Source: Antedon mediterranea
Taxonomy: Eukaryota > Animalia > Echinodermata
Assembly: GCF_964355755.1 (NCBI RefSeq)
Contig: NC_092676.1
Span: 4,441,888 to 4,505,887, forward strand
Direction of reading: 5' to 3'
Length of the DNA stretch: 64,000 nt
Position 1 is the stretch's first letter, and every line of letters begins with the position of its first letter. The translations under genes were made by a program, and so were the position numbers. The notes under the pieces are model-generated. The model had not been told where the DNA came from, searched no databases, and saw nothing but the letters and a program-made list of their open reading frames with translations. Below are positions 714 to 27,700 of the stretch, piece after piece.

Positions 714-785
714 GTCTTTGTACAGTAACCAAATAAGTACATTACCAGCCAATGTATTTGCTGATTTGACAGCATTGAAAACACT
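714..785 (+). CDS. LRR exon A1 SLYSNQISTLPANVFADLTALKTL
   Basis: ttttaag|72 nt|gtaagt, phase 2-2. Confidence 0.85.
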
Positions 786-3700
786 GTAAGTGTATTGCTT
801 ATGTTTGCTTACTTTTACCAATTTGGTTTTAATTTAGAAAATTAAATGAAAAATTGTTTTACATTGTTGGTTAAACAATGATAATGGATTAATATTATTA
901 TATAATTTCACAATTTGTGATCTTATAAAAAAACTTTAAAAATCAATCGTTTTTTGCTCATCCAACATTAACAAACTTTATTTTTTTGAATAATATTATA
1001 ATAATTCAAAATACATTTTTATTGTAACTGTCACAATATAAATATTATTATAACAAATGTTACTAAATAATTAGTATTTGTTTATTTAGTGATTTTGTTT
1101 TAAGAGAATAAAAATTATTAAAATATAAATATATATTTTATATTTTGACATTAAAATATTGATACAATACAGTGCATGTATTGTAGGTTCGATTGTAATA
1201 AGGGAGTAATAATATGTACTTTATGATTTCATGATTATTTATAGTAAAAATAATTTTAAAGTGAACATTTTAAAAATGTATTCACCATGATTGAACTATT
1301 TATTTTTGTAAGATCTAACAATTGAAACTGAATCTGTATTACATATAGATAACACATTTATTATATGGTTGCTATCAAACAATTTGAATTTGTTGTAGAC
1401 ATTATATTTTAATAAAATATACATTAAAATATACATTTTTATTTTAACATAATATATTTTGACATAACTAAAGTACATACAATAGAGTACATGCAGTATA
1501 ACTACTGTATAATGTACAGGAATGTAGACATTTCAACATTTGAGGTGACAGAAAAACTAAAATAATTTAAAAACAGCTTGGATATTGTGATTTACTTATA
1601 CTGTGCATTTTTTTACTTTTAAGGTCTTTGTACGATAACCAAATAAGTACATTACAAGCCAATGCATTTGCTGGTTTGACAGCATTGGAAACACTGTAAG
1701 TGTATTGCTTATGTTTAATTTTTTGCTCATCCAACATTAACAAATTTTATTTTTTTGAATAATATGTAATTCAAAATAAATTTTTATTGTAACTGTCACA
1801 AATATAAATATTATTATAACTAATGTTACTAAATAATTAGTATTTGTTTATGTAGTGATTTTGTTTTATGAGAATAAAAATCATCAAAATATAAATATAT
1901 ATTATATAGTTTTACATCATTAAAATGTTGATACAATACATTGCATGTATTGTAGGATAAATTGTAATAATGGACTAATAATATGTACCTTATGATTCCA
2001 TGATTATTTACAATAAAACCAATTTAAAAATCAACAATTTTTTAATTTTTTCACCATGATTGAACTATTTATTTTTGTAAGACAAAACAATTGAAACTGA
2101 ATCTGTATTACATATTAGATAATACATTAATTATATGGTTGTTAACAAACAATTTGAATTTGTTGTAGACATTTTATTTTTAATAAAATAAGTTATTAAA
2201 AATATATCACATTTTTACTTTAACATAGTATATTTTGACATAACTAAAGTACATACAATATAGTACATGCAATATAACTACTGTATAATGTACAGGAATG
2301 TAGACATTTCAACATTTGAGGTGACAGAAACACTAAAATAATTTAAGAACAGCTTTGATATTGTGATTTACTTATACTGTGCATTCTTTTTACTTTTAAG
2401 GTATTTGAGCAGTAACCAAATAAGTACATTACCAGCCAATGCATTTGCTGGTTTGGCAGCATTGAGAACACTGTAAGTGTATTGCTTATGTTTGCTTACT
2501 TTTACCAATTTGGTTTTAATTTAGAAATTAAATTACAAATTAATTTGAATTGTTGATTAAGCAATTATAATGGATTAATATTATTACATAATTGCACAAT
2601 TTGTGATCGTATAAAAAATATCTTTATAAATCACAAGTTTTTAGTTCATCCACCATGAAAGAACTTTATTTTTGTGTAATACATAATAATTCTGAATTAA
2701 TCTTAAATGTAAAATTTCACAATATAAATATCATTATAATGATTGTTATACTAATTAATTAGTATTTGTTTATGTAGTGATTTTGTTTTATGATAATAAA
2801 AATTATTAAAATATAAATATATATTTTATATTTTGACATCATTAAAATATTGATACAATACAATGTATGTATTGTAGGATCAATTGTAATAATTGACTAA
2901 TAATATGTACCTTATGATTTCATGATTATTCACAGTAAAACAAATTTAAAAAGCAACAATTTTGTAATTTATCCACCATGATTGAATTATTTATTTTTGT
3001 AAGATCTAACAATTGAAACTGAATCTGAATTACATATAGATAATACATTTATTATATGGTTGCTATCAAACAATTTGAATTTGTTGACATTTTGTTTTCA
3101 GAAAATATGTTAATCAAATAAATTTACAACATTTTTATTTTAACATAGTATATGTTGACATAACTAAAGTACATACAATAGAGTACATGCAGTATAAATA
3201 CTGTATAATGTACAGAAATGTAGACATTTCAACATTTGAGGTGACAGAAAAACTAAAATAATTTAAAAACAGCTTGGATATTGTGATTTACTAATACTGT
3301 GCATTCCTTTTACTTTTAAGGGAATTGGACAATAACCAAATAAGTACATTACCAGCCAATGCATTTGCTGGTTTGACAGCATTGGAAACACTGTAAGTAT
3401 ATTGCTTATGTTTGCTTACTTTTATCAATTTGATTTTAATTTAGAAATTAAATTATAAATTATTTTAAATTGTTGGTTAAGCAATTATAATGGATTAATA
3501 TTATTACATAATTTCACAATTTGTGATTGTATAAAAAAATATCTTTATAAATCACTAGTTTTTAGTTCATCCACCATGAATGAACTTTATTTTTGTGTAA
3601 TACATAATAATTAAAAATTAATCTTAAATGTAAAATTTCACAATATAAATACCATTATGATTGTTATACTAAATAATTAGTACATGTTTATGTAGTGATT

Positions 3701-6700
3701 CTGTTTATGAAAATAAAAATTATTAAAATATAAATGTATATTTTATATTTTGACATTATTAAAATATTGATACAATACAATGCATGCATAGTAGGATCAA
3801 TTGTAATAATGGACTAATAATATGTACCTTATGATTTCATGATTATTCACAGTAAAACAAATTTAAAAAGCAACAATTTTGTAATTTATCCACCATGATT
3901 GAATTATTTATTTTTGTAAGATCTAACAATTGAAACTGAATCTGAATTACATATAGATAATACATTTATTATATGGTTGCTATCAAACAATTTGAATTTG
4001 TTGACATTTTGTTTTCAGAAAATATGTTAATCAAATAAATTTACAACATTTTTATTTTAACATAGTATATTTTGACATAACTAAAGTACATACAATAGAG
4101 TACATGCAGTATAACTACTGTATAATGTACAGGAATGTAGACATTTCAACATTTGAGGTGACAGAAAAACTAAAATAATTCAAAAACAGCTTGGATATTG
4201 TGATTTACTTATACTGTGCATTCTTTTTACTTTTAAGGTATTTGTACAATAACCAAATAAGTACATTACAAGCCAATGCATTTGCTGGTTTGGCAGCATT
4301 GGAAACACTGTAAGTGTATTGCTTATGTTTGCTTACTTTTAACAATTTGGTTTTAATTTAAAAATTAAATTACAAATCATTTTGAATTGTTGATTAAGCA
4401 ATTATAATTGATTAATATTATTACATAATTGCACAATTTGTGATCGTATAAAAAATATCTTTATAAATCACAAGTTTTTAGTTCATCCACCATGAATGAA
4501 CTTTATTTTTGTGTAATACATAATAATTCTGAATTAATCTTAAATGTAAAATTTCACAATATAAATATCATTATAATGATTGTTATACTAATTAATTAGT
4601 ATTTGTTTATGTAGTGATTTTGTTTTATGATAATAAAAATTATTAAAATATAAATATATATTTTATATTTTTACATCATTAAAATGTTGATACAATACAT
4701 TGCATGTATTGTAGGATCAATTGTAATAATGGACTAATAATATGTACCTTATGATTCCATGATTATTTACAGTAAAAACCAATTTTAAAATCAACATTTT
4801 TAAAATGTATCCACCATGATTGAACTATTTATTTTTGTAAGATCTAACAATTGAAACTGAATCTGAATTACATATAGATAATACATTTATTATATGGTTG
4901 CTATCAAACAATTTGAATTTGTTGACATTTTGTTTTCAGAAAATATGTTAATCAAATAAATTTACAACATTTTTATTTTAACATAGTATATTTTGACATA
5001 ACTAAAGTACATACAATAGAGTACATGCAGTATAACTACTGTATAATGTACAGGAATGCAGACATTTCAACATTTGAGGTGACAGAAAAACCAAAATAAT
5101 TTAAAAACAGCTTGGATATTGTGATTTACTTATACTGTGCATTCTTTTTACTTTTAAGGGATTTGGAAAATAACCAAATAAGTACATTACCAGCCAATGT
5201 ATTTGCTGGTTTGACAGCATTGGAATACCTGTAAGTGTATTGCTTATGTTTGCTTACTTTTAACAATTTGGTTTTAATTTCGAAATTAAATTACAAATTA
5301 TTTTACATTGTTGGTTAAGAAATGATAATGGATTAATATTATTATATAATTTCACAATTTGTGATCTTATAAAAAAACTTAAAAAAGCAATAGTTTTTTG
5401 CTCATCCAACATGAACAAACTTTATTTTTTGGAATAATATTATAATAATTCAAAATACATTTTTATTGTAAATGTCACAAATATAAATATTATTATAACA
5501 AATGTTAATAAATAATTAGTATTTGTTTATTTAGTGATTTTGTTTTATGATAATAAAAATTAATAAAATATAAATATATATTTTGACATTAAATATTGAT
5601 ACAATACAGTGCATGTATTGTAGGATCAATTGTAATAATGGACTAATAATATGTACTTTATGATTTCATGATTATTTACAGTAAAACCAATTTTAAAATC
5701 AACATTTTTAAAATGTATCCACCATGATTGAACTATTTATTTTTTTTAAGATATAACAATTGATACTGAATCTGTATTACATATTAGATAATACATTTAC
5801 TATATTGTTGCTAACAAACAATTGAATTTTGTGTAGAAAATTTGTTTTAAGAAAATAAGTTATTTGAATATATTTACCACATTTGTATTTTAACATAGTA
5901 TATTTTGACATCACTAAAGTACATACAATAGAGTACATGCAGTATAACTACTGTATAATGTACAGGAATGTAGACATTTCAACATTTGAGGAGACAGAAA
6001 AACTAAAATAATTTAAAAACAGCTTGGATATTGTGATTTACTTATACTGTGCATTCTTTTTACTTTTAAGGTTTTTGTACAGTAACCAAATAAGTACATT
6101 ACAAGCCAATGCATTTGCTGGTTTGACAGCATTGGAAACACTGTAAGTGTATTGCTTATGTTTGCTTACTTTTACAATTTGGTTTTAATTTAGAAATTAA
6201 ATATAAAATTATTTTACATTGTTGGTTAAGCAATGATAATGGATTATTATTGTTACATAATTGTACACTTTGTGACCTAATAAAAATATCTTTATAAATC
6301 ACTAGTTTTTAGTTCATCCACCATGAATGAACTTTATTTTGGTGTAATACATAATAATTCAAAATTAATATTAATTGTAAAATTGTACAATATAAATATC
6401 ATTATAATGATTGTTATGCTAAATAATTAGTATTTATGTTGTAATTTTGTCTTATTAGAAAAAAATCATCAAAATATAAATACATATTATATATTTTGAC
6501 ATTATTAAAATATTGATACAAACAGTGCTTGCATTAATATTATTATATAATTTCACAATTTGTGATCTTGTAAAACATATCTTAAAAATCACTAGTTTTT
6601 TGCTCATCCACCATGAATGAACTTTTTATAATATATAATTCAAAAATAATTGTTATTGTAAATATCACAATATAAATATCATTATAACAAATGTTACTAA

Positions 6701-9700
6701 ATAATTAATATTTGTTTATGTTGTAAGTTTGTCTTAATTATAAGAAAAAAATTATTGAAATATAAATATATATTGTGATCATCTTTTAAAAAATCAATAG
6801 TTTTTAGTTCATCCACCGTGAATGAACTTTATTTTTGTGTAATACATAATAATTAAAAATAATAATAATAATTCAAAATCAATCACTATATAAATATCAT
6901 TATAATAATTACTATTTGTTTATGTAGTGATTTTGTTTTATGAGAATAAAAATTATTAAATATATATTTTATATTTTGACATTAAAATGTTGATACAATA
7001 CAGTGCATGTATTGTAGGTTCAATTGTAAAAATGGAGTAATAATATGTACTTTATGATTCAATGATTATTTACAGTAAAACCAATTTAAAAAGCAACAAT
7101 TTTGTAATGTATCCACCATGATTGAACTATTTATTTGTGTAAGATACTAAATATGTATTACATATTAGATAATACATTTATTGCATGGTTGCTAACAAAC
7201 AATTTGAATTTGGTGTAAAAATTTTCTTTTGTGAAAATAAGTAATTTAAATATATTTACCACATTTTTATTTTAACATAGTATATTTTGACATCACTAAA
7301 GTACATACAATAGAGTACATGCAGTATAACTACTGTATAATGTACAGGAATGTAGACATTTCAACATTTGAGGTGACAGAAAAAATAAATAATTTAAAAA
7401 CAGCTTGGATATTGTAATTTACTTATACTGTGCATTCCTTTTACTTTTAAGGTCTTTGAGCTATAACCAAATAAGTACATTACAAGCCAATGCATTTGCT
7501 GGTTTGACAGCATTGAAAAGACTGTAAGTGTATTGCTTATGTTTGCTTACTTTTACCTATTTTGTTTTATTTTGTTTTTTAAATTACGGATTCGGATTCT
7601 AACATTATTGACCTTTGACCTTGATTTATCATATCTTAGCAACCACTAATCTGAGAGACACACAATATGGCTCAAACTGTTCAGAAACTACATATTTATA
7701 TTTAGTCTAATGGCATGTTTTTGCAAAAAATGGCCGATTCTAACATTATTGACCTTTGAACTTTGCACTACATAAAATCGCATAACTTTGAAAATATTGT
7801 ACATATGAAATTATTTTTAGTGTCAAATTATTCAAAACATACATGTTTCTATAGAGTCCAATGACACATTATGTCCAATAATGACCTATTGTATGGTTAT
7901 TAACATTTGAACTATATTTGAAAAGGATTTTTAAACCCGGAATCTTCTTCATGTAGGCATTCATTAGAACATGTGATTTGGCACTACTTGTTTAGAATAT
8001 GGTGGTAATTTAAAGTGCATGTAACCAGTTGATTTAAATTAAATTTAAAAACTGAAAATATTCACTTAAAAAAAAATATTAGACTATATATACATACATT
8101 ATAGGTTTGGATTATTAATACATTTTTAATTAGGTCTTACATCTTACTCAGGAGAAAGTTGGTGTTGACACTATTAACAGAGCCAACAAAAATGTATTTT
8201 TTTTTATGATATATTGTACATACTTTAAATAGGCCATGCCATTTTGCAGGTTTATTAACGTTTTTTTCAAGTTAGTAATTTATTTTATTATCAAATTAAA
8301 TTGCCATTAAATGGCATATTCAAAAAAACAAATTTCTAAAGATTATTTAGTTTATATTTTGCTAAGGATAGCATCACTCTTGAGGGCATTCTTTTAGGTT
8401 GAAACATAGTCTTATTAAGAAGGCATTTTCTACTAATAGACGCATTGTTGACAACTGGAATTTTAAAAGATCGATATTAATGCAACATATTTAGTTTAGT
8501 TTAATTAATTGGCTATCGAGACTCATAATTAGGCTGACCACCACTTGCAATATTTTCGCCGTATACAGTAAAAACCTCAGTTTCTTATGGAATTTATTTA
8601 TTTATTTCAATAACCATATACAGTACGACTACTAGTGGTGTATAGTTTTTAAGCTTTTATAACTTGTTTTTGTACTTTTTTTACGTGAATGTATTGTGTA
8701 TGTACTATGTTTCTATGTGGTTTAATTTTTACCATTTTTTAACCATCAATTTTAATGCTTTTAATATAAATATCTTGTAATTCAGCTTCAGCTGCGAAGA
8801 CGATAAGAAATAAAACTTGTAGGCAGTTTGTGGATGAATGCAATAGTTTATGCTTATAAATTTAATGTACCATGGCCTACTTTAAACTAAACATAATAAG
8901 TCAACGTTGCAACTCTTACATTTTAGAGTGCCAAATCACATGTTCTAATGGATGTCCACATGAAGAAGATTCCGGGTTTAAAGACTTTTCAAATATAGTT
9001 CAAATGTTAATAACCATACAATAGGCCATTATTGGACATAATGTGTCATTGGACTCTATAGAAACATGTATGTTCTGAACAATTTGACACTAAAAATAAT
9101 TTCATATGTACAATATTTTCAAAGTTATGCGATTTTATGTAGTGCAAAGTTCAAAGGTCAATAATGTTAGAATCGGCCATTTTTTGCAAAAACGTGCCAT
9201 TAGACTAAATATAAATATGTAGTTTTTGAACAGTTTGAGCCATATTGTGTGTCTCTCAGATTAGTGGTTGCTAAGATATGATAAATCAAGGTCAAAGGTC
9301 AATAATGTTAGAATCCGCCATTTTTTGCAAAAACATGCCATTAGACTGGATATAAATGTGTAGTTTCTGAACAATTTAAGCCCTAATTTGTATTTCTCCA
9401 ATTAGGGGTTGCTGAGATATGATAAATCAAGGTCAAAGGTCAATAATGTTAGAAATAGCACTTCCATTCATTTTTGGACAAACTTTTTCATTAAAGTGAA
9501 TATAAAAACATATATTCTAACGATTTTGACACCATAATTAAGTATCTGTGACTAGCGGTTTCCAAGATACAGAGTACGTTATTAAAAATGGCGGCCATTT
9601 TTAATTATGCAAATTAGGCTACTTCCTTTTGTCGAAAAATGTCCTAACGTTGATAAATGTGTTCAGTAGGGTCTAAAGAACACATTTCATCAAAAAAACC

Positions 9701-12700
9701 TTTTCTTGCAATTTGTGTGAGTTAAAAGTCTAAATCCCATTGACTAGTATTGTAGGATCAATTGTATTAATGGACTAATAATATGTACTTTATGATTTCA
9801 TGATTATTTACAGTAAAACCAATTTTAAAATCAACATTTTTAAAATGTATCCACCATGATTGAACTATTTATTTTTTAAATAACAATTTAAACTGAATCT
9901 GTATTATATATTAAATAATACATTTATTTTATGGTTGCTATGTGTAATACATAATAATTCTGAATTAATCTTAAATGTAAAATTTCACAATATAAATATC
10001 ATTATAATGATTGTTATACTAAATAATTACTATTTGTTTATGTAGTGATTTTGTTTTATGAGAATTAAAATTATTAAAATATAAATATATATTTTATATT
10101 TTGACATTAAAATATTGATACAATACAGTGCATGTATTGTAGGTTCAATTGTAATAATGGAGTAATAATATGTACTTTATGATTTCATGATTATTTACAG
10201 TAAAACACATTTTAAAATAAACATTTTTTTAATTTATCCACCATGATTGAACTATTTATTTTTTTAAGATATAACAATTGAACTGAATCTGTATTACATA
10301 TAGATAATACATTTATTATATGGTTGCTATCAAACAATTTTTAATTTGTTGTAGAAATTTTATTTTAACAAAATAAGTTATTAAAATATATCACATTTTT
10401 ATTTTAACTTAGTATATTTTGACATCACTAAAGTACATACAATAGAGTACATGCAGTATAACTACTGTATAATGTACAGGAATGTAGACATTTCAACATT
10501 TGAGGTGACAGAAAAAATAAAATAATTTAAAAACAGCTTGGATATTATAATTTACTTATACTGTGCATTCTTTTTACTTTTAAGGTATTTGAGATATAAC
10601 CAAATAAGTACATTACAAGCCAATGTATTTGCTGGTTTGACAGCATTGAAATACCTGTAAGTATATTGCTTATGTTTGCTTACTTTTACCAATTTGGTTT
10701 TAAATTAGAAATTAAATGAAAAATTGTTTACATTGTTGGTTAAACAATGATAATGGATTAATATTATTATATAATTTCACAATTTGTGATCTTATAAAAA
10801 AACTTTAAAAATCAATAGTTTTTTTGCTCATCCAACATTAACAAACTTTATTTTTTTGAATAATATTATAATAATTCAAAATACATTTTTATTGTAACTG
10901 TCACAATATAATTATTATTATAACAAATGTTACTAAATAATTAGTATTTGTTTATTTAGTGATTTTGTTTTATGAGAATAAAAATGATTGAAATATAAAT
11001 ATATATTTTATATTTTGACATTAAAATATTGATACAATACAGTGCATGTATTGTAGGTTTGATTGTAATAAGGGAGTAATAATATGTACTTTATGATTTC
11101 ATGATTATTTATAGTAAAAATAATTTTAAAGTGAACATTTTAAAAAGTATTCACCATGATTGAACTATTTATTTTTGTAAGATCTAACAATTGAAACTGA
11201 ATCTGTATTACATATAGATAATACATTTATTATGGTTGCTATCAAACAATTTTTAATTTGTTGTAGAAATTTTATTTTAATAAAATATACATTAAAATAT
11301 ATCACATTTGTATTTTAACATAGTATATTTTGACATAACTAAAGTACATACAATAGAGTACATGCAGTATAACTACTGTATAATGTACAGGAATGTAGAC
11401 ATTTCAACATTTGAGGTGACAGAAAAAATAAAATAATTTAAAAACAGCTTGGATATTGTAATTTACTTATACTGTGCATTCTTTTTACTTTTAAGGTATT
11501 TGAGATATAACCAAATAAGTACATTACAAGCCAATGTATTTGCTGGTTTGACAGCATTGGAAACACTATAAGTGTATTGCTTATGTTTGCTTACTTTTAC
11601 CAATTTGGTTTTAATTTAGAAAATTAAATGAAAAATTGTTTTACATTGTTGGTTAAACAATGATAATGGATTAATATTATTATATAATTTCACAATTTGT
11701 GATCTTATAAAAAAACTTTAAAAATCAATAGTTTTTTTGCTCATCCAACATTAACAAACTTTATTTTTTTGAATAATATTATAATAATTCAAAATACATT
11801 TTTATTGTAACTGTCACAATATAAATATTATTATAACAAATGTTACTAAATAATAAATATTTGTTTATTTAGTGATTTTGTTTTATGATAATAAAAATTA
11901 ATAAAATATAAATATATATTTAGGCATTAAATATTGATACAATACAGTGCATGTATTGTAGGATCAATTGTATTAATGGACTAATAATATGTACTTTATG
12001 ATTTCATGATTATTTACAGTAAAACCAATTTTAAAATCAACATTTTTAAAATGTATCCACCATGATTGAACTATTTATTTTTTTTAATAACAATTTAAAC
12101 TGAATCTGTATTATATATTAAATAATACATTTATTTTATGGTTGCTATGTGTAATACATAATAATTCTGAATTAATCTTAAATGTAAAATTTCACAATAT
12201 AAATATCATTATAATGATTGTTATACTAAATAATTATTATTTGTTTATGTAGTGATTTTGTTTTATGAGAATAAAAATTATTAAAATATAAATATATATT
12301 TTATATTTTGACATTAAAATATTGATACAATACAATGTATGTATTGTAGGATCAATTGTAATAATGGACTAATAATATGTACCTTATGATTTCATGATTA
12401 TTCACAGTAAAACACATTTAAAAAGCAACAGTTTTTTTAATTTATCCCCCATGATTGAACTATTTATTTTTGTAAGATATAACAATAGAAACTGAATCTG
12501 TATTATATATTAGATAATACATTTATTATATGGTTGCTAACAAATAATTTTTAATTTGTTGTAGAAATTTTATTTAAACAAAATAAGTTATTAAAATATA
12601 TCACATTTTTATTTTAACATAGTATATTTTGCCATCACTAAAGTACATACAATAGAGTACATGCAGTATAACTACTGTATAATGTACAGGAATATAGACA

Positions 12701-15700
12701 TTTCAACATTTGAGGTGACAGAAAAACTAAAATAATTTAAAAACAGCTTGGATATTGTGATTTACTTATACTGTGCATTCTTTTTACTTTTAAGGTATTT
12801 GAGCGATAACCAAATAAGTACATTACCAGCCAATACATTTGCTGGTTTGACAGCATTGGAAACACTGTAAGTATATGGCTTATGTTTGCTTACTTTTACC
12901 AATTTGGTTTTAATTTAGAAATTAAATTACAAATTAATTTGAATTGTTGATTAAGCAATTATAATGGATTAATATTATTACATAATTGCACAATTTGTGA
13001 TCTTATAAAAAAACTTTAAAAATCAATAGTTTTTTGCTCATCCAACATTAACAAACTTTATTTTTTTGAATAATATTATAATAATTCAAAATACATTTTT
13101 ATTGTAACTGTCACAATATAAATATTATTATAACAAATGTTACTAAATAATTAGTATTTGTTTATTTAGTGATTTTGTTTTAAGAGAATAAAAATTATTG
13201 AAATATAAATATATATATTTTATATTTTGACATTAAAATATTGATACAATACAGTGCATGTATTGTAGGTTCGATTGTAGTAAGGGAGTAATAATATGTA
13301 CTTTATGATTTCATGATTATTTATAGTAAAAATTAATTTTAAAGTGAACATTTTAAAAATGTATTCACCATGATTGAACTATTTATTTTTGTAAGATCTA
13401 ACAATTGAAACTGAATCTGTATTACATATTGGATAACACATTTATTATATATTAAAAATTATTGAAATATAAATATATATTTTATATTTTGACATTTGAC
13501 ATTGCTTATGTTTGCTTACTTTTACCAATTTGGTTTTAATTTAGAAAATTAAAATTATTAAAATATAAATATATATTTTATATTTTGACATTAAAATATT
13601 GATACAATACAGTGCATGTATTGTAGGTTCAATTGTAATAATGGAGTAATAATATGTACTTTATGATTTCATGATTATTTACAGTAAAACACATTTTAAA
13701 ATAAACATTTTTTAAATTTATCCACCATGATTGAACTATTTATTTTTTTAAGATATAACAATTGAACTTTTACCAATTTGGTTTTAATTTAGAAATTAAA
13801 TTACAAATTATTTTACATTGTTGGTTAAGAAATGATAATGGATTAATATTATTATATAATTTCACAATTTGTGATCTTATAAAAAAACTTTAAAAATCAA
13901 TAGTTTTTTGCTCATCCAACATTAACAAACTTTATTTTTTTGAATATTATTATAATAATTCAAAATACATTTTTATTGTAACTGTCACAATATAAATATT
14001 ATTATAACAAATGTTACTAAATAATAAATATTTGTTTATTTAGTGATTTTGTTTATGATAATAAAAATTAATAAAATATAAATATATATTTTGGCATTAA
14101 ATATTGATACAATACAGTGCATGTATTATAGGATCAATTGTATTAATGGACTAATAATATGTACTTTATGATTTCATGATTATTTACAGTAAAACCAATT
14201 TTAAAATCAACATTTTTAAAATGTATCCACCATGATTGAACTATTTATTTTTTTAAATAACAATTTAAACTGAATTTGTATTATATATTAAATAATACAT
14301 TTATTTTATGGTTGCTATGTGTACATAATAATTCTGAATTAATCTTAAATGTAAAATCTTGTAAAAACAAACTTAAAAAATCACTAGTTTTTTGCTCATC
14401 CACCATGAATGAACTTTTTATAATATATAATATTTCAAAATGATTTTTTATTGTAAATGTCACAATATAAATATATTTTTGTAAATCAACAATTTCAGCC
14501 GTCGGGCTGCATGTTTTTTATTATATAAACCTGAATAAATAAATAAATAAATTATTACAATTGATCCTACAATACATGCACTGTATTGTATAAACATTTT
14601 AATGTCAAAATATAAAATATGTAATCACTACATAACAAATACTAATTATTTAGTATAACAATCATTATAATGATATTTATTGTGAAATTTTACAATTAAT
14701 ATTATTTTTTAAATTATTATGTATTACACAAAAATAAATTTCATTCATGGTGGATGAATTAAAAACTAGTGATTTATAAAGATATTTTTTATAAGATCAC
14801 AAAGTGTAAAATTATGTAAATTATGTAATAATATTAATCCATTATCATTATACAGTAGTTGTACTGCATGTACTCTATTGTATGTACTAGTGATGTCACA
14901 ATATACTATGGGTAAATAAAAATGTATATTTTAATAACTTATTTTATCAAAATAAAATGTCTACAAAAAATTAAAATGTTTTGATAGCAACCATATAATA
15001 AATGTATTATCTATATGTAATACAGATTCAGTTTCAATTGCTATGTCTTACAAAAATAAATAGTTCAATCATGGTGGATAAATTTAAAAATTGTTGATTT
15101 TAAAATTAGTTTTACTGTAAATAATCATGAAATCATAAGGTACATATTATTAGTCCATTATTACAATTGATCCTACAATGCATTCAATGTATTGTATCAA
15201 TATTTTAATGACAAAATATAAAATATATATTTATATTTTAATAATTTTTATTCTCATAAAAAAATCACTACATAAACAAAATACTAATTATTTAGTAACA
15301 TTTGTTATAATGGTATATATATATATGGAAACACAAATATTTAAAAAAATACCAAAATTTATACAAAACATTAACAAATTTGAAAAATTCAGTTAAAAAA
15401 ATAAAATTATGTTAAAAAAATTACATAATTTATATACAAAATGCTTAGGCCTATATATGTAAATATTTATAACATAGCCATCTTCAGCGTGATCAGTTTA
15501 GGTACTGTTTAAATTAAGGATTCTACTTATAGTAAGGGCAGGCGAGGTCTTAAGACGGTTAGTTCTACAAACAGGTATATTATTTAGGGGTTTATGGACT
15601 AATATGTACTTTATGATTCCATGATTATTTACAGTAATTTTGTTTTAAGAAAATAAGAAATAAGTTATGAAAATATATTTACAAAAGTATATTTTGACAT

Positions 15701-18700
15701 ACTAAAGTATACAATAGATGGATTACATGCAGTATAATGTATTTACTGTACTACAATTTAGTTTTAATTAAAAAGGTAAATTAGAAATTGTATTTTACAT
15801 TGTAGAACAATTATAACAAAATATTTAATATATAATTTCATTATTATGTGATTATAAGTTTAAACCCCACCTCACCAAAAAAATATATATACGTATATGA
15901 TAATATAATAAATCAAAAATCAATTTTCAGTTGTTATTTTACAATATAAATATCATTTAAAATATCATTTAAGTTAATTTTACTACATTTAGTATTTGTT
16001 TACTTTAACCAGAAAACAAACAAAAATAAAAGGGATAAATGCAGTGTTTATATTACCGTAAATCAATAGATAATTGGCAACTAACTTAATTAACTGCTCA
16101 AGCCCAAACTAGCAAGACCATAATGTGCATTATTTATCATATACTGTGTATTTTTTATCATTTAAGGTGGTTGGATGGTAACCAAATACACACATTGGAA
16201 GCCTATGCATTTGCCGGTTTGGAATCATTGACAGGACTGTGAGTATTTTTTCAATACTTTTACAAACTTCCTTATTTTTAAAAGAAACTTTATTTATTGT
16301 TGTTTTAGAACTATTCTAATTATTCCAGTTGATACTGTATGTCATGGACTGCCATAACATTGCTGTAACACAGATGTCAATCAACAATAGATTTACAACT
16401 AACAATATGACTTATATTATTATTTATAATTACTAGAGGGTGAGCTCGCTTCGCTCGCTCCCCCTCTAGGAAGTGTAGACGATGGTTCTCGGAATGATAA
16501 TGTTCTCCTTATACATTTTCTGTCGGTTACCATTATTGAAAATGCTTGACATTCGTAAAACTAAACTACTTTGTTTCACAGTGTTTTAGATGATTAATAA
16601 CATTTTAAAGTATAGTTTTTATTGTTTGGTAGGGCCCTTTGGGGAGGCGGAGGTCATTTGAGGGAGGTGCTTATTCGAGGGATATATGTTAAATTTTTTA
16701 GTTCTAATAATATGGTAACATTTATAATCAAATGAAATCCTCTCATAGATATGAAAAGTGGTAAAAAAGAATAACAAATGCTTGGTAAATTGCAGATAAC
16801 AGTGCGGTGAATTCTACTACAAATAGTATAATTGTGTTATTATAAATATGTGGATGGACGTTTATTAGATAGTTGGGTTGTGGGGGGGGGGGGGGGTTAT
16901 TATTCAAAGTGATGTTTTATTGGAGAGGCGTTTATTCAAATGAATACCATCCTAATAATTATTAATACATTATTTAATTTAATCATCTTTTGAAACTAAC
17001 TGCCGTGACAGAGTGGGCCCAAGAAAGAAGACATTACGGCTTGCAACATGGGCAGACATCTCGGTCCTAACGGGACACAGGAAGATAGCCTACAGTTATT
17101 CCTGCAAGCTTACTCAATAAAACTCAGGGATTTCACTCGAAAAATGTCTTATCAAATCTCCCTATGTAATTTTATAATACTATTCCCCACAATATATTCT
17201 GATTCTTTATGGCGTATATTTAATTTGATCTTTATTAATTTGCAGTATAATTCTTATTATTTAACTACTGTACCTTCACACACGTGTGGTATGTTTTAAA
17301 ATAAACAAAAAACTGAAATGGCTATGATTAATGGCCAATTTTTTTTTCGTCTTCCAAAGGGACACTGTATTGATTGATGGAAAGTGCCTGTTTCCAGTCA
17401 CCTTTAGGGTCAAATCTATTATTTTAACTGCTCCCTTGTGTATAAAAGAGAGAAAATATTTGAAACTAAGGTGAACTTATCTTAAACCCGGAAATTACTT
17501 TGACCGGAAGAATTGAAATTGAGAGGAAAATCCAATGTTGAAATCATAAATGTTGTTAAAAAACTCTTTATAATATCTTCCTAAGATATAAATATGGAAC
17601 AATAGCGTCGGCGTGCACACTAACGTTATCAAATCAACGTTTCGCGGTACATCTCGGATAGATAAGGTAGGTATCCAAGGCGGAGATTTGTACCGAAGTT
17701 TTTGCATTGTGCTCGCCTATGTCAGAATTAACCATAATTTATATATAGATTATACATGACAATTTGATTCAAAGATCTCTTTTGTCACAATTTTTTTTTT
17801 TAATAAAAATTTACCATATTACTGTATCAAACAACTTAGATACTGATCGAATTTCTGTTATGAGTATACAGTACTTGCCTTTACGACGCCTGAGGGAATA
17901 GACACTTGTGGAACAGAGATTGGAATGTTCCATTCATCGCAAATCAATACATTTGTATAAACGTATATTAAATCTATCAAAATAATACTTTTTAAAGAAA
18001 ATCGGCCTGTCTTCAACATTATGATGCTGTACTCGAGCTGTTCAGCCGGTTTTCAGCGATTAAAAACAATTATCGTAGGAGGAGATAGGAAAATGCGAAG
18101 CATCCTCGCATTATTGTATGCGGGTATTTTTCAAGATGGACATGCATTAGACAGTGTATACCACGATCGGAAAACACCCCTATTTGGAGCAAATCGTTGA
18201 ACCTAAATTCGTTTTAATCGTCAATAACTAATTATCGAACTCAATTTAATTAGTAAACAGGGTTACATCAGGTGGTTAAAATCAGTATCGAAAGTACGAA
18301 CCAACTTTATATACCATCGAGTAAACATTCTAGAAATAACGCGCGATTTACCGAATAAATCAAATATCAATTTTCAGTTGTTATTTTACAATATAAATAT
18401 CATTTAAAATATCATTTAAGTTAATTTTACTACATTTAGTATTTGTTTACTTTAACCAGAAAACAAACAAAAATAAAAGGGATAAATGCAGTGTTTATAT
18501 TACCGTAAATGAATAGATAATTGGCAACTAACTTAATTAACTGCTCAAGCCCAAACTAGCAAGACCATAATGTGCATTATTTATCATATACTGTGTATTT
18601 TTTATCATTTAAGGTGGTTTGATTTTAACCAAATACACACATTGGAAGCCTATGCATTTGCCGGTTTGGAATCATTGACAGGACTGTGAGTATTTTTTCA

Positions 18701-21700
18701 ATACTTTTACAAACTTCCTTATTTTTAAAAGAAACTTTATTTATTGTTGTTTTAGAACTATTCTAATTATTCCAGTTGATACTGTATGTCATGGACTGCC
18801 ATAACATTGCTGTAACACAGATGTCAATCAACAATAGATTTACAACTAACAATATGACTTATATTATTATTTATAATTACTAGAGGGTGAGCTCGCTTCG
18901 CTCGCTCCCCCTCTAGGAAGTGTAGACGATGGTTCTCGGAATGATAATGTTCTCCTTATACATTTTCTGTCGGTTACCATTATTGAAAATGCTTGACATT
19001 CGTAAAACTAAACTACTTTGTTTCACAGTGTTTTAGATGATTAATAACATTTTAAAGTATAGTTTTTATTGTTTGGTAGGGCCCTTTGGGGAGGCGGAGG
19101 TCATTTGAGGGAGGTGCTTATTCGAGGGATATATGTTAAATTTTTTAGTTCTAATAATATGGTAACATTTATAATCAAATGAAATCCTCTCATAGATATG
19201 AAAAGTGGTAAAAAAGAATAACAAATGCTTGGTAAATTGCAGATAACAGTGCGGTGAATTCTACTACAAATAGTATAATTGTGTTATTATAAATATGTGG
19301 ATGGACGTTTATTAGATAGTTGGGTTGTGGGGGGGGGGGGGGGTTATTATTCAAAGTGATGTTTTATTGGAGAGGCGTTTATTCAAATGAATACCATCCT
19401 AATAATTATTAATACATTATTTAATTTAATCATCTTTTGAAACTAACTGCCGTGACAGAGTGGGCCCAAGAAAGAAGACATTACGGCTTGCAACATGGGC
19501 AGACATCTCGGTCCTAACGGGACACAGGAAGATAGCCTACAGTTATTCCTGCAAGCTTACTCAATAAAACTCAGGGATTTCACTCGAAAAATGTCTTATC
19601 AAATCTCCCTATGTAATTTTATAATACTATTCCCCACAATATATTCTGATTCTTTATGGCGTATATTTAATTTGATCTTTATTAATTTGCAGTATAATTC
19701 TTATTATTTAACTACTGTACCTTCACACACGTGTGGTATGTTTTAAAATAAACAAAAAACTGAAATGGCTATGATTAATGGCCAATTTTTTTTTCGTCTT
19801 CCAAAGGGACACTGTATTGATTGATGGAAAGTGCCTGTTTCCAGTCACCTTTAGGGTCAAATCTATTATTTTAACTGCTCCCTTGTGTATAAAAGAGAGA
19901 AAATATTTGAAACTAAGGTGAACTTATCTTAAACCCGGAAATTACTTTGACCGGAAGAATTGAAATTGAGAGGAAAATCCAGTGTTGAAATCATAAATGT
20001 TGTTAAAAAACTCTTTATAATATCTTCCTAAGATATAAATATGGAACAATAGCGTCGGCGTGCACACTAACGTTATCAAATCAACGTTTCGCGGTACATC
20101 TCGGATAGATAAGGTAGGTATCCAAGGCGGAGATTTGTACCGAAGTTTTTGCATTGTGCTCGCCTATGTCAGAATTAACCATAATTTATATATAGATTAT
20201 ACATGACAATTTGATTCAAAGATCTCTTTTGTCACAATTTTTTTTTTTAATAAAAATTTACCATATTACTGTATCAAACAACTTAGATACTGATCGAATT
20301 TCTGTTATGAGTATACAGTACTTGCCTTTACGACGCCTGAGGGAATAGACACTTGTGGAACAGAGATTGGAATGTTCCATTCATCGCAAATCAATACATT
20401 TGTATAAACGTATATTAAATCTATCAAAATAATACTTTTTAAAGAAAATCGGCCTGTCTTCAACATTATGATGCTGTACTCGAGCTGTTCAGCCGGTTTT
20501 CAGCGATTAAAAACAATTATCGTAGGAGGAGATAGGAAAATGCGAAGCATCCTCGCATTATTGTATGCGGGTATTTTTCAAGATGGACATGCATTAGACA
20601 GTGTATACCACGATCGGAAAACACCCCTATTTGGAGCAAATCGTTGAACCTAAATTCGTTTTAATCGTCAATAACTAATTATCGAACTCAATTTAATTAG
20701 TAAACAGGGTTACATCAGGTGGTTAAAATCAGTATCGAAAGTACGAACCAACTTTATATACCATCGAGTAAACATTCTAGAAATAACGCGCGATTTACCG
20801 AATAAATCAAATATCAATTTTCAGTTGTTATTTTACAATATAAATATCATTTAAAATATCATTTAAGTTAATTTTACTACATTTAGTATTTGTTTACTTT
20901 AACCAGAAAACAAACAAAAATAAAAGGGATAAATGCAGTGTTTATATTACCGTAAATGAATAGATAATTGGCAACTAACTTAATTAACTGCTCAAGCCCA
21001 AACTAGCAAGACCATAATGTGCATTATTTATCATATACTGTGTATTTTTTATCATTTAAGGTGGTTTGATTTTAACCAAATACACACATTGGAAGCCTAT
21101 GCATTTGCCGGTTTGGAATCATTGACAGAACTGTGAGTATTTTTTCAATACTTTTACAAACTTCCTTATTTTTAAAAGAAACTTTATTTATTGTTGTTTT
21201 AGAACTATTCTAATTATTCCAGTTGATACTGTATGTCATGGACTGCCCTAATATTGCTGTAAACACCGGTGCCAATCAATTTACATCTAACAACATGAAT
21301 TATATTATTGTTTATATACATGAAAATTTGATTCAAAGATCTCTTTTGTCAATACATTTTTTTAATGAAAATTTACAATCATACTGTATCAAACAACTGA
21401 GTGTTGACAAAGTGCGAGGCAGCGAGGCACGCGAGGCAAGCGCGGCATGCGCGGCATGCCAAATATTTGTGCGAGGCATCATTTTATCATTTCCAAAAGT
21501 GCGAGGCATATAGTTTACAATTTCAAAAAGGTGCGAGGCATATCTTAACGTGCTATTATGCTATATTATAGGCCTAATAATCAATCGATACAAGCGTATC
21601 TAAATAGATTCGTGTATACACTCATCATGTTGTTTATTTTTATGTAACGATTGTTTTTTCATTCAAGTCATATCGTGTCAAATTTTACTTTTACAAAAGT

Positions 21701-24700
21701 GCCCAAACTACGGTTAAAAAATCTGAACGACAGTCTTCAACTTTCGATAAACAATAATTGTTATAGCAACACACTCATCAAATGACTGCAATGTTTGTTG
21801 GCATTTCGAGCGTGTTCACTCACATGTCTCTCGAACATAGCAGAGTGAAAATAATATTTTGTCACACCCCTGCGCCTAGATCCGGTAGACCCGAGAGATG
21901 GAAAATCCCTCTTTACTATTTAGCAGGTAGCGGAATGATTCAGCCCTCAGCTCAGAGGATTGTGGTGCATTCCCCTCCTATAGCACGTGGTTTCAGCAGC
22001 AACGCACAGACTTCTCTCTGAGCGGCGTGCCAAAGACATTTTTGACATTCCATTCTCTAGGAACAACACGTGTACCTCTCTCGCAAATAAGGTGAACAGC
22101 GATTGCCAGGACAAGTTCAATAACTGGCGGTGAATAAAAGGTAACTGATATGCCGATCCAATAACATGCCGCAAAGAAAAAAATTGCGACAGAATTCTGG
22201 AGCGCGTGTGAAAAAAGACTTACGTCCGACAATTGTAATACTAGGCCTAAAATTAAACTTTAGCTAATATGCTTAGCCCTAACCTAGATAAAGGCCTATG
22301 TAGAAAATAATTTAATCAATTTTGATAAAATAATAATTGGTGTAATATTTAATAATGATACACTATTCCTGTTTTAGTAAGCTAGGTATATTACGAACGA
22401 TTTTTATTTATTGTTGTCCATGTACGTACTAATAAACCTGGCGCTAGTTTCCTTCGCTTGTATGTTTACTCCAAATTTGATAACTAACTTTATCGTGTGA
22501 ATACCACACCTTAGAAGTATACCTCATGAGTACTTTAATGAAAGAATCACATAAAAAGTAACAAATAAATCCTTAAATTAATGATTTTACAGGCGTGTTT
22601 CTCGCACACTGTTCGCGAATTTCACTTATTCAATGTTCAATATTTTTGTTTCTATGGAGCGCCAAAAGAGCAACGATAATAGAGGACTAAAACTCAGTGG
22701 AATGCGTCAATTTCTCATGCATTTATTGGTGAAAAACACGTTTTATTTCAATATATTTGTTAATTTGTCAATAAAAATGTTGTAATATGTTACTGCTGAT
22801 ACTGTTCTGTTTTCAAAGAATAATAATCGATCCTAAATCAACATCACTACCTAGTCTAGACCTAGGACATCCTACTAAGGATATTATGATGAATTTTTCT
22901 ATTTTATTCTTTAAAAGGTTAACGAAACCGTGTACATTATCAACAGTAACATTTTTCCTTACTGACAGTGACAAAATCTATTGAAATTGTACTTGATTTT
23001 CACCAAATAATGCGTTAAATATAAATGGATTCCACAGAGTTTTTAGCCCTCTAATTAATTTTGCTCTTTTGGCGTTCCATAGAAACCAAAATATTGAACA
23101 TTGAGTGTGCGAAATGCGAGAAAAACAACGTCTGTAAAATCACCAATTTAATGGATTTATTGTTACTTTTATGTGATTTTTCTTCATTAAAGTATGCCTA
23201 ATTCTAAGCTGTGGTATTCAGGATAAAGCCTTGGTTAAATTACAAGGCAGGTGCAAAAGGAAACTAGCCTAGCGGGCCTAGGCCTAGGCTACTTCAATTT
23301 CGGTGATTTCCTGCCTTGCAATTTTGAGAAATGATAAAATGATGCCTCGCATTTTTTGATGATGGTAAAACGATGCCTCGCATAAATTTCTGACTTGCCT
23401 CGCATGCCTTCTCTGCCTCGCGTGCCTCGCTGCCTCGCACTTTGTTACTACCCATGTAGAATTAACAATAACAGATTATTATGTATTACCATAAAACTTT
23501 GAAAAGAAGGCAATTGCTGTTTCTTTTTTTAGGATTCTTGGGTGGGCTTCTTTTCGAGATATGCTAAATTTTGAGATGGGCTTCTTTTTGTGCCGCTCCT
23601 TTAGGAGCAGCACAAAACAAGCAAGCATTAGGAAACAGTTACCATTCGGAAGGTTACAGTTTGCTAGGGCTGAAAAAATGGGTATTTGGAAACCCGGACT
23701 GGGAATGGGGGCAAACCCCAAAATTATATAAGATGTAGAACTCAATAGATAATTTGCAATTAACTTACCTGCTCAAGCCTAAGCTAGCAAGACTATTATA
23801 CTGTGCATTATTCATCATTTAAGGCGGTTGGAAGGTAACCAAATACACACATTGGAAGCCAATGCATTTTCTGGTTTGGAATCATTGACAGAACTGTGAG
23901 TATTTTTTCAATACTTTTACAAACTTTATAATTTCAAAATAAACTATATTTATTGTTATTCCAGTTGATACTGTATGTCATGGACTTCCCTAACATTGCT
24001 GTAACACTGGTGCCAATCAATTGAATAACAACATGAATTATATTATTGTTTATATACATGATTATTTTATTCAAAGATCTCTTTTGTCACAATTTTTTTT
24101 TTAATGAAAATAATTACTATAACACTGTATCAAACAACTTGGATACTGTATATGATTTTCCTTACTGTGAATTATTTTTCTGTATCAAACAACTATGATA
24201 TAATAATTTTACTTACTATGAAATATGTTATTTTGAAGGCGTTTGAATGGTCACAAAATCAGTACATTGCCAGCTAATGCATTTAACGGTTCGACAGCAT
24301 TGACAACACTGTAAGTGTTTTCTCTTGTTCATAATACTTTTATATCTTTAATTAAAGTAGAACCCCTATAATAATGGGACACCTTCAAAACCAAAATTGT
24401 CCCCATAATAGAGGTTTTTGTTGAAATAAAAACCAAACTTTTAGCAACCAATGTTTCACCAATAAAAATTGTCAAGCCTGAGAAAGTATGTTTATTTTTA
24501 CGATATTCATTTTTGATCTTGTAGCAAAATTTAATTCAATTTTAATGAGAGATGATGAACCTGGAGCAAGTGGTTGACTGAAATTAAACTTTTGTACTAT
24601 AAAAGGGTTACTATCTATATATAAATTTACGTAAGGGCAAAATTCGGTAAATCACGCGTTATTTCTAGAATGTTTACTCGATGGTATATAAAGTTGGTTA

Positions 24701-27700
24701 GAATCTCGGTACTGATTTTAACCACCTGATGTAACCCTGTTTACTAATTAAATTGAGTTAGATAATTAGTTATTGACAATTAAAACGAATTTAGGTTCAA
24801 CGATTTGCCCCAAATAGGGGTGTTTTTCGATCGTGGTATACACTGTCTAATGGATGTCCGTCTTGAAAAATACCCACAGACAATAATACGAGGATGCTTC
24901 GCATTTTCCTATCTCCTCCTACGATAATTGTTTTTAATGGCTGAAAACCGGTTGAACAGCTCGAGTACAGCATCATAATGTTGAAGACAGGCCGCTTTTC
25001 TTTAAAAAATACTATTTTGATAGATTTAATATACGTTTATACAAATGTATTGATTTGCGATGAATGGAACATTCCAATCTCTGTTCCACAAGTGTCTATT
25101 CCCTCAGGCGTCGTAAAGGCAAGTACTGTATACTCATAACAGAAATTTGATCCATTTTTTTTTTAATCTGTGCTGCAGAGGTTGGATATAATTTTTTTTA
25201 AACGGATAATGAGCTAGCGTTTTCAGTCGCAGTATATTATGTAAACATCTTTATTATTGCATTTAAACCACCCACATCATCACCCCTCCCTCACTGGCAT
25301 GAGTAGCGTTGTAAAGCCAGTACAGGATAGGCCTACGGTGCATCACATCCCCTAAACGCAGAACAACTTTGGTGGGTAGGGTAAGAACCAACTTAAGTAT
25401 GAATTGGCTCTAAGAAACAATTGAAAACCATTAGGCCTACTAATTAAGTTGAGTTAGATAATTTAATATTTATTGACGATTAAATCGAATTTATGATTTT
25501 CCTCGAATAGAGGTGGTTTTCACAAATTGTTTTACATTATATAAACATACACGTCGTAGTGATGTATCGTTACATGTACTGTAGCCTACTATTTCAATCG
25601 ACTAGGACGGTGATAGTTTCAACAAAGTATTACATAGCAATGTTTTACTGTGTTTAGTGGTATATTATTTGTAAAACATGAAAACAATTAATATTTCGTT
25701 ACTAAATGGATAAAGAATATATTTAATATATTTAAAAATTTTTCCTCTTTGCACCCATCCTCTTCCCCATCCCTCACCCCTAATGTTACATACAAAACAC
25801 AAATTAAGTTTGTTTAAATTTGACTTAAACAATTGGTCTCATTTTGTGACAAGTTTCTCTTTCGGAAGTAATTCTCAGGGTGCTAATTTTAGTTGAGTAC
25901 ATAAATCATTGTCTATTTATTCGTTCCTGTAAACGACATGTATTATTGTAGGCCTACGTACATTTGAAATCGCCAGTTTTTTAACGCTGCAATTATTATG
26001 TATTCGAAAACCATCTGTGGGCACGACCTAGATGGTACGCGAGCGAAGCGAGCGTACCATCTAGTTCTTTAAAATAAAGGAAAACATTTACAGGGTGGGC
26101 AAGTAAAACTTAAAAGTGGTTTTGGTGGCCAACAAAGCTGTAATTTAAAACTTTACCCTGAAAAAAAGTGTATTACATGCAATTTTCTAACAGTATGCAA
26201 AATTTAAGGTAATTATCCTGTAGAGTAATTGTTTTAACTTCATTTAATAATTAATATTTTATTACATTTAAAACTCCCAACAATGGGCTTTGATGTCCCC
26301 TTAGGGAGGCCTTTCAGGAGGTCCAGTTTGCCTTAATATAATTTTCACTATTTCTATCAAAATTATATTCACTGTCATAAAGTATTTAGGTAACCGGTTA
26401 CAGGATTATAAATACATGAAAAACCCCCTTATTGTCAAAAATTGTCTGTGCCTATGAGAGGTGTGTTTGTGTTTGGATGTTCTGCTAAATAGGAAAATCA
26501 TTCAGGCCTTAATACTAGTGTCTTAATGGGATGTGTCTGGGAGTTTCATACCATACTGTATTACCATATTAGAAAAAAAAAAAAAACCTTCTTGAATATT
26601 GTAATTTTATTATACTGTTCATTCTTTTTCCTTTGTAGGAGATTGGATGGTAACCAAATCAGTACATTGCCAGCCCTTGCATTTAATGGTTTGTCAGCTT
26701 TGACAGACCTGTGAGTTTTTTCATACCATTTGCTACATTTACTAATTTATGTTATTTCACTAAATTAAATCATGCATGTAGAATTAACAATAACAGATTA
26801 TTATGTATTACCATAAAACCTTGAAAAGAAGGCAATTGCTGCCTCTTTTTTTAGGATTCTTGGGTGGGCTTCTATTTGAGATATGCTAAATTTTGAGATG
26901 GGCTTTTTTTTTGTGCCGCTCCTTTAGAAGCAGCACAAAACAAGCAAGCATTAGGAAACAGTTACCATTCGGAAGGTTATAGTTTGCTAGGACTGAAAAA
27001 TGGGTATTTGACAACTCGGGCTGGGAATGGGGGAAAACTCCAAAATTATATCAGATGTAGAACTCAATAGATAATTTGCAATTAACTTACCTGGACTATT
27101 ATACTGTGCATTATTTATTATTTAAGGCGGTTGGAAGGTAACCAAATACATACATTGGAAGCCTATGCATTTGCCAGTTTGGAATCATTTGGAGTTTCTT
27201 TTCAATACTCCCTAATTGTGGTTATTATAATTATTCCAGTTAATATGATATATGATAATCAGTCCTAAGTCACGGAAGATTCAATTGAAACCTATTATTA
27301 CAATTAATGGCAAAAGCTTAGAATATTTTGACTCAACCACATATCTTGGTCATGTTATCTCCTTGGATTTATGTGATGATTTCGATATAAAGCGGCAATA
27401 CAGATCTTTGTGTATCCGAGCCAACTCATTGGTAAGAAAATTTAGCATGTGTTCTGTCGATGTGAAATGTGTTGTATTTAGAACATATTGTGTAAATATG
27501 TATTGTGCTACATAATGGTGCAACTATAATCAAGGTACCTTGCGATCTCTTAAGGTATGCTACAATAATAGGTTAAGAATGTTGCTACAAAGGCCTCGAC
27601 ATTGCAGTGCCAGCCTTATGTTTACGGACATTAGAATTCCTTCTTTCTATGAATTGTTTAGAAAATCAATATATGGCCTGATGGGTAGACTAAATGCATG

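Follow-up and report, generated by a model that had tools for sequence, protein, structure and literature searches.

The locus raises the question of whether an inverted, exon-less copy of an intron unit, lying between two classes of LRR exons in a receptor gene of Antedon mediterranea, is an RNA docking element comparable to those of arthropod Dscam or the product of a rearrangement. The initial annotation had favored the first reading, in which the copy pairs with any one of the introns upstream and loops out the exons between, and had listed a neutral rearrangement among its alternatives. We address the question within a window of 64,000 nucleotides, the whole stretch of DNA that was analyzed.

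A GRL101-like receptor gene with an LRR exon array

The gene is a GRL101-like LRR-GPCR, as judged from its coding sequence, with its 3' part in the window on the plus strand. The last coding exon (37057 to 38080) encodes a 7TM domain (PF00001, E = 4e-31), and because its translation is identical (100%) to residues 194 to 533 of XP_071956207.1, a GRL101-like protein of Antedon mediterranea, the window is very likely the XP_071956207.1 locus. The closest proteins share the GRL101-like name, and the protein cluster of XP_071956207.1 holds seven members, all from Antedon mediterranea. N-terminal LDLa repeats are a feature of GRL101; PF00057 is assigned to many of the protein matches of this gene, whose own N terminus lies outside the window.

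The class A array (714 to 12866, plus strand) comprises 11 LRR exons starting at 714, 1624, 2401, 3321, 4238, 5159, 6071, 7452, 10585, 11496, and 12795, with intron-unit sequence extending to the 5' edge of the window. Each exon is 72 nt long and in phase 2, so that the description of these exons as in-frame cassettes in the initial annotation holds. All 11 exons are open, and AG/GT is retained in 10 of them; A10 (11496 to 11567) is an open exon with ATAAGT instead of GTAAGT at its donor and is probably dead or skipped. The array ends with A11 (12795 to 12866), and the first class B exon, B1, lies at 16167 to 16238; B1 is distinguishable from the exon at 31565 only close to the 3' end. At least 16 further LRR exon copies follow class A between 16167 and 36750, ahead of the 7TM exon, which brings the LRR exon copies in the window to at least 27, and an exon scan of the minus strand of the window found none. 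The copy at 27127 has no GT at 72 nt and is followed by two open frames (copy and frames together, 27127 to 27785) that by eye resemble the end of a LINE.

Variation among the class A exons amounts to 27% over the first 14 nt versus 3.6% over nt 15 to 62, indicating that the A repeats are not interchangeable. These variable first 14 nt are the codons for the xLxxN residues, which in LRRs face the ligand, and their variability hints at diversifying selection in an expanded receptor family.

The RefSeq model at the locus starts at 32572, holds no A exon, and contains translated intron sequence, and it is therefore a weak guide to A-exon usage. In two paralogue models, P0112 and P0115, A-type repeats are combined with B-type repeats and the 7TM part, and one paralogue model starts in a translated class A intron unit; the paralogue gene models, which are predictions, carry two to four A-type repeats in tandem. 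Paralogues of the receptor include XP_071956203.1 and XP_071956189.1/XP_071956192.1. Many family members are annotated as barely more than the 7TM part, and the eight crinoid relatives inspected have 3 to 15 LRR motifs. Beyond the receptor gene, the minus strand (53688 to 58757 and 40874 to 41980) carries, as read by eye, a neighboring gene with long low-complexity open frames (1,296 and 354 aa) as well as short frames near 41 to 42 kb that are N-acetyltransferase-like.

Structure of the inverted block

The inverted block (14551 to 15322, minus strand, 772 nt) consists of two joined pieces of the class A intron unit. Blastn confirms the earlier description of the block as a reverse-complement copy of this unit, with its right end at 15322 rather than 15311, and its location between the last class A exon and the first class B exon is likewise as described. 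With unit positions numbered on the reference intron 2473 to 3320, the first piece on the minus strand (14846 to 15322) covers positions about 250 to 738 and stops 110 nt before the acceptor; the second piece (14551 to 14849, minus strand) covers about positions 90 to 429 of another unit, with a 36-nt deletion, and is nearest to the unit at 1 to 713 (4.1%). Compared by blastn on the minus strand, the first piece matches the 11 complete upstream intron units at 81.3 to 90.6% identity (E of 2e-137 or lower), with 7.4 to 10.1% substitutions from the 11 forward copies, and the second piece matches the unit start at 72 to 81% identity.

The two pieces meet at an AATG microhomology (14846 to 14849, minus strand), an exon-less join with a loss of 275 nt. 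The claim that the acceptor-exon-donor segment was excised at this point stands: the sequence ctactgtat-AATG-ataatggatt is present a single time in the window, at 14839 to 14858 of the minus strand, and is absent from the plus strand. In an alignment with the unit around A9, the missing 275 nt (10471 to 10745) comprise about 110 nt of pre-exon sequence, the exon itself (72 nt), and roughly 90 nt downstream of the donor, and between 12867 and 16166 no class A acceptor or donor motifs are left on either strand.

Unit positions 250 to 425 are present twice inside the block, and these two copies differ at 12 of 128 sites (9.4%), while they differ from their best forward matches by 5.9% and 3.1%. 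Because the internal copies diverge more from each other than from their best forward matches, the AATG join must have brought together pieces of two different units. We also considered that the join might stem from a duplication within a single intron and rejected this, the two internal copies not being sisters. The reference intron unit itself consists of two old sub-repeats (about 325 bp, 63% identity), and the AATG join is close to their shared register; weak sub-repeat homology may have helped exon loss at AATG. The class A unit, with a period over 500, is not reported by Tandem Repeats Finder.

In-place inversion at the decayed end of the array

On both sides, the block is separated by non-array filler from forward intron-unit sequence. 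The left flank (14356 to 14474, plus strand) covers unit positions 134 to 259, and its end runs on into the block start as read on the minus strand; together they form a 32-nt run that is found forward at 6666 to 6697. The left filler at this breakpoint (14475 to 14550, 76 nt) ends in (AAAT)n, an end that we take to resemble a retroelement tail. The right filler (15323 to 15595, about 273 nt) is followed by the right flank (15596 to 16005, plus strand), where the unit resumes at about position 430 and then passes through an older forward exon-less join near 15745; the block end (position 429) and this flank (position 430) together give a run that is found at 3798, 4718, 5627, and 12353. No long match to either filler was found elsewhere in the window. 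Since both breakpoints rebuild the forward unit, the block is, on the evidence of these runs, flipped where it is located: undoing the flip and dropping the fillers rejoins both flanks into a normal unit to about 1 base.

Exon-less pieces are frequent in this part of the array. The block's own intron contains forward exon-less partial units (12867 to 14355, plus strand), which are competing partners for the block that loop out no exon. Between 1 and 16200 there are, as counted from hit lists, eight other distinct forward exon-less joins in 10 places, each of them a step backward in the unit; one is copied three times, one has a relative near 28590, and some of the eight may be duplications inside an intron. 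Given these eight joins nearby, the absence of an exon in the block is not special. An isolated, older forward copy of the class A intron unit is also found in the B region (28308 to 28861), and it shares an exon-less join with 15636 to 16002. The in-place inversion with its fillers, the forward partial units in the block's intron, and the AT donor of A10 were all absent from the initial annotation.

The array grew as a unit of about 910 bp, one intron plus one exon, was duplicated, and partial exon-less units accumulated at its 3' end. One AATG join fused two different units, losing 275 nt, and the 772-nt stretch with this join was flipped, with foreign filler left at both breaks. Join and flip, in whichever order, were presumably repair or recombination accidents, probably tolerated because the stretch is intronic and without a splice site.

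The window contains further rearranged sequence. The intron after A8 holds an insertion of about 1.7 kb (7593 to 9317), probably a DNA transposon, whose terminal inverted repeats are 393 bp long and 97% identical; a tandem repeat of 141 bp comes after it. In the B region, a 2,447-bp B unit is very recently duplicated in tandem (15907 to 21316, 99.2% identity), the stretch 21398 to 24333 is repeated at 32837 to 35801 (96.6%), and a self-complementary element (about 740 bp) is present twice in B introns (22488 to 23228 and 33932 to 34672).

Divergence of the block from the forward copies

The distance from the block to the forward copies averages 8.7% versus 8.0% among the forward copies themselves, and the end branch of the block (0.05) is like those of I2, I6, and I7, the most diverged forward copies. 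Compared with the forward majority, the block shows 16 differences (11 pair-breaking transversions, 4 changes that keep a G-U pair, and 1 other transition), and the forward copies show 8 to 18 differences each. One of the 11 private substitutions of the block keeps a G-U pair. Pooled mismatches lean toward G-U-compatible changes (92 versus 54 of 443), in a count that reuses the same block sites across the 11 copies and is thus non-independent; the transitions relative to the forward majority lean the same way (4 versus 1). All of these comparisons of divergence and pair keeping are blurred by gene conversion among the forward copies. Within the array, and with small numbers, we observe no clear sign of selection, as divergence does not appear slowed and there is no clear pair-keeping bias. 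An accidental origin is compatible with later use of the block.

Predicted RNA pairing and its possible effect on splicing

The strongest single duplex predicted for the block is with its own intron (−605 kcal/mol), with the 11 upstream introns at −482 to −567 kcal/mol and two unrelated controls at −150 and −161 kcal/mol. When both halves pair and self-structure is counted, the predicted energies are −408 to −535 kcal/mol for 10 of the 11 exons and −278 kcal/mol for A8. In these predictions, then, one antisense copy can pair with the introns around each of the 11 A exons (−278 to −535 kcal/mol), in line with what had been proposed for it. With self-structure counted, the own-intron partner is predicted at −318 kcal/mol; 10 of the 11 pairings that bracket an exon are stronger than this, those around the distant A5 (−535 kcal/mol) and A3 (−533 kcal/mol) most of all. 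A duplex of 500 to 700 bp at about 90% identity is predicted. Predicted pairing extends over 614 to 716 bp around 10 of the 11 A exons, and in these 10 brackets the exon and its splice sites would remain unpaired to the block because the block is without the exon segment. An isoform ladder is, by these calculations, physically possible.

With both halves free to pair, the predicted equilibrium fold of 12150 to 15400 loops out A11, with 443 bp paired to the intron before A11 and 250 bp after it. The free fold of this region is predicted at −1,056 kcal/mol versus −897 kcal/mol once pairing across the A11 donor is disallowed, a difference of 159 kcal/mol. The arms of the inverted pair flanking A11 (443 bp of predicted duplex) are about 2.2 kb apart, within the spacing of about 5 kb used to define loop-out pairs. 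A toy contact model, which weights exact 12-mers by distance and includes no proteins and no splicing kinetics, places 47 to 86% of first contacts in the own intron and 8 to 18% across A11 alone, with a declining tail upstream; for 14850 to 14984, one or more exons are crossed in 68 to 90% of the modeled contacts.

If the A exons are transcribed with the gene, the half of the block that is made first would be expected to meet own-intron partners first, and the duplex could then extend across A11. The predicted outcome is a weak, near-biased loop-out like that of inverted Alu pairs, with no even isoform ladder, and the effect of such pairing would be limited to some in-frame skipping of the final one to three class A exons.

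A 512-bp repeat in the B region is present in two forward copies and one inverted copy at 96% (17845 to 18356, 20292 to 20803, and 24642 to 25152) that flank three or four class B exons. The predicted duplex of this inverted pair reaches −633 kcal/mol, and the pair is a loop-out candidate as good as the block.

Weighing of the explanations

We consider it probable that the decayed end of a tandem LRR exon-intron array was inverted in place to give the block, which is likely unselected and predicted to pair mostly with near partners, and the neutral rearrangement that the initial annotation had kept as an alternative is the best fit. If neutral, the block clearly documents the turnover of an LRR exon array through unequal exchange, the loss of exons at microhomology, and inversion in place that leaves filler DNA. 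A purpose-built Dscam-like element is not upheld: the block is an inversion at a decayed array end, exon-less joins are common nearby, and the same gene has, around B exons, a stronger inverted pair that arose independently of the block. The inversion could nevertheless have been recruited as a downstream docking element that, by bracketing any one A exon, puts the preceding donor close to the B1 acceptor and produces a ladder of LRR numbers, which we judge improbable. The predicted pairing around 10 of the 11 A exons with splice sites free of the block, the uniform 72-nt, phase 2 A exons, the 27% difference in the first 14 nt that makes the A repeats not interchangeable, and the location exactly at the A/B boundary all speak for such a role; that boundary is, however, the place where decayed units collect anyway, divergence is not slowed and the pair-keeping bias is not clear, own-intron copies that loop out no exon compete for the block, and the predicted partner energies spread over more than 100 kcal/mol, which is ill-suited to an even choice. 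The wider proposition that one chance inversion produced, in a single step, the docking site for a whole tandem exon array, tuning LRR number in a diversifying crinoid GPCR family, strikes us as similarly improbable. If it is true, a deuterostome invertebrate would be generating a repertoire of receptors by splicing, and competing RNA structures would have a new way of arising, in which duplication comes first and inversion later. If splicing is altered, the locus would be a natural experiment on the origin of docking sites, a single inversion supplying a partner for every intron at once.

The block would have no RNA effect if the class A array is not transcribed into the receptor or if the gene is decaying, which we regard as unlikely but worth keeping in mind. 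The RefSeq model that contains the identical 7TM part begins at 32572 without any A exon, A10 and the exon at 27127 lack a GT donor (the latter at 72 nt), and many family members are annotated as little beyond the 7TM part; against this, all 11 A exons are open and 10 of them keep AG/GT, the paralogue models P0112 and P0115 join A-type and B-type repeats to the 7TM part, and the RefSeq model, with its translated intron, is a weak guide. The main effect might also lie elsewhere, in an edited long double-stranded RNA, in back-splicing, or in an inverted repeat that acts at the DNA level and favors additional inversions of A exons. The predicted duplex of 500 to 700 bp at about 90% identity would suit these effects, inverted pairs are linked to circRNA in the discussion of the TBXT paper, as far as its available text goes (PMC10901737), and reversed LRR exons occur in Ectocarpus according to the accessible portion of PMC3341825, yet the minus strand of the window yielded no LRR exon, and we hold this to be very improbable. 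Hardly any credence can be given to an independent insertion of a dispersed repeat or to an assembly artefact, even with a related forward copy at 28308 to 28861 and fillers that look foreign. An insertion, by a transposon or otherwise, would not restore the unit at both flanks, where the forward unit is rebuilt, and an artefact would copy a neighbor, whereas the block differs by at least 7.4% from every forward copy and has 11 private substitutions; both candidates were rejected on these grounds.

The gene family is perhaps worthier of attention than the block, with recently multiplied receptors and LRR exons that vary mostly in their first 14 nt. In the literature on the mechanism, the family, crinoid GPCRs, and GRL101 together with alternative splicing, LRR, or immune terms, covered at the level of titles and abstract starts, we found no account of this locus.

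Comparison with known systems

Docking sites that lie downstream of their exons are described for insect genes in the available part of PMC6071210, and docking/selector systems of the Dscam1 type, including the downstream sites of Dscam exons 4 and 9, 14-3-3zeta, Mhc, and MRP1, are described in the accessible text of PMC6071210 and PMC12962786. The block resembles them as one downstream site that is complementary to each intron of a tandem exon array, with predicted pairings that compete mutually. Dscam-type elements are, as these same partial texts present them, conserved and serve mutually exclusive exon choice (PMC6071210, PMC12962786), whereas the block is 770 nt of unconserved intron that was inverted after the duplications, and the A exons most likely act in tandem as a solenoid. 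Since the block diverges within the array like the forward copies, with 11 of its 16 changes breaking pairs, we do not file it as a Dscam-type element. Docking sites are further proposed, in the part of PMC6071210 at hand, to originate by duplication of one arm of an older stem-loop; the block is instead an inversion of an already duplicated and already fused pair of units.

As an exon array, the locus is in line with the ROCO LRR arrays of brown algae, for which rearranged and reversed units are described (available text of PMC3341825 and PMC11378527) and in which, in Ectocarpus, they are common (PMC3341825), and with the 90-bp LRR exon arrays of Tetrahymena (excerpt of PMC6564038). It shares with these arrays one LRR per phase 2 exon in repeated exon-intron units, here a 24-residue LRR per 72-nt exon as in ROCO, as well as dead copies and local rearrangement that includes reversed pieces. 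Unlike in ROCO, the array encodes an animal GPCR ectodomain, the reversed piece is without an exon, and the non-coding strand of the window holds no intact LRR exon. The order of an LRR ectodomain followed by a rhodopsin-type 7TM part is that of GRL101-like LRR-GPCRs, although the window has at least 27 LRR exon copies versus the 3 to 15 LRR motifs of the eight crinoid relatives.

The recognition of the block as an in-place inversion is new here, and its best analogue would be loop-out skipping by inverted repeats, as in TBXT with its Alu pair, rather than a conserved Dscam docking site. In TBXT (AluSx1-AluY), the nearer inverted partner dominates, and in mouse Tbxt a non-Alu reverse complement of 220 to 297 nt is sufficient for skipping, according to the available text of PMC10901737; loop-out exon skipping by inverted Alu pairs is also described in the accessible parts of PMC13019027 and PMC13019944. 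As in those genes, short in-frame exons of the crinoid locus are flanked on either side by introns with long imperfect inverted repeats, no more than a few kilobases apart, the origin is accidental, and the nearer partner is expected to win. The crinoid locus differs from TBXT in that the repeat is the gene's own duplicated intron and no transposon, in that one antisense copy faces at least 11 partners, and in that the skipping here is a predicted one.
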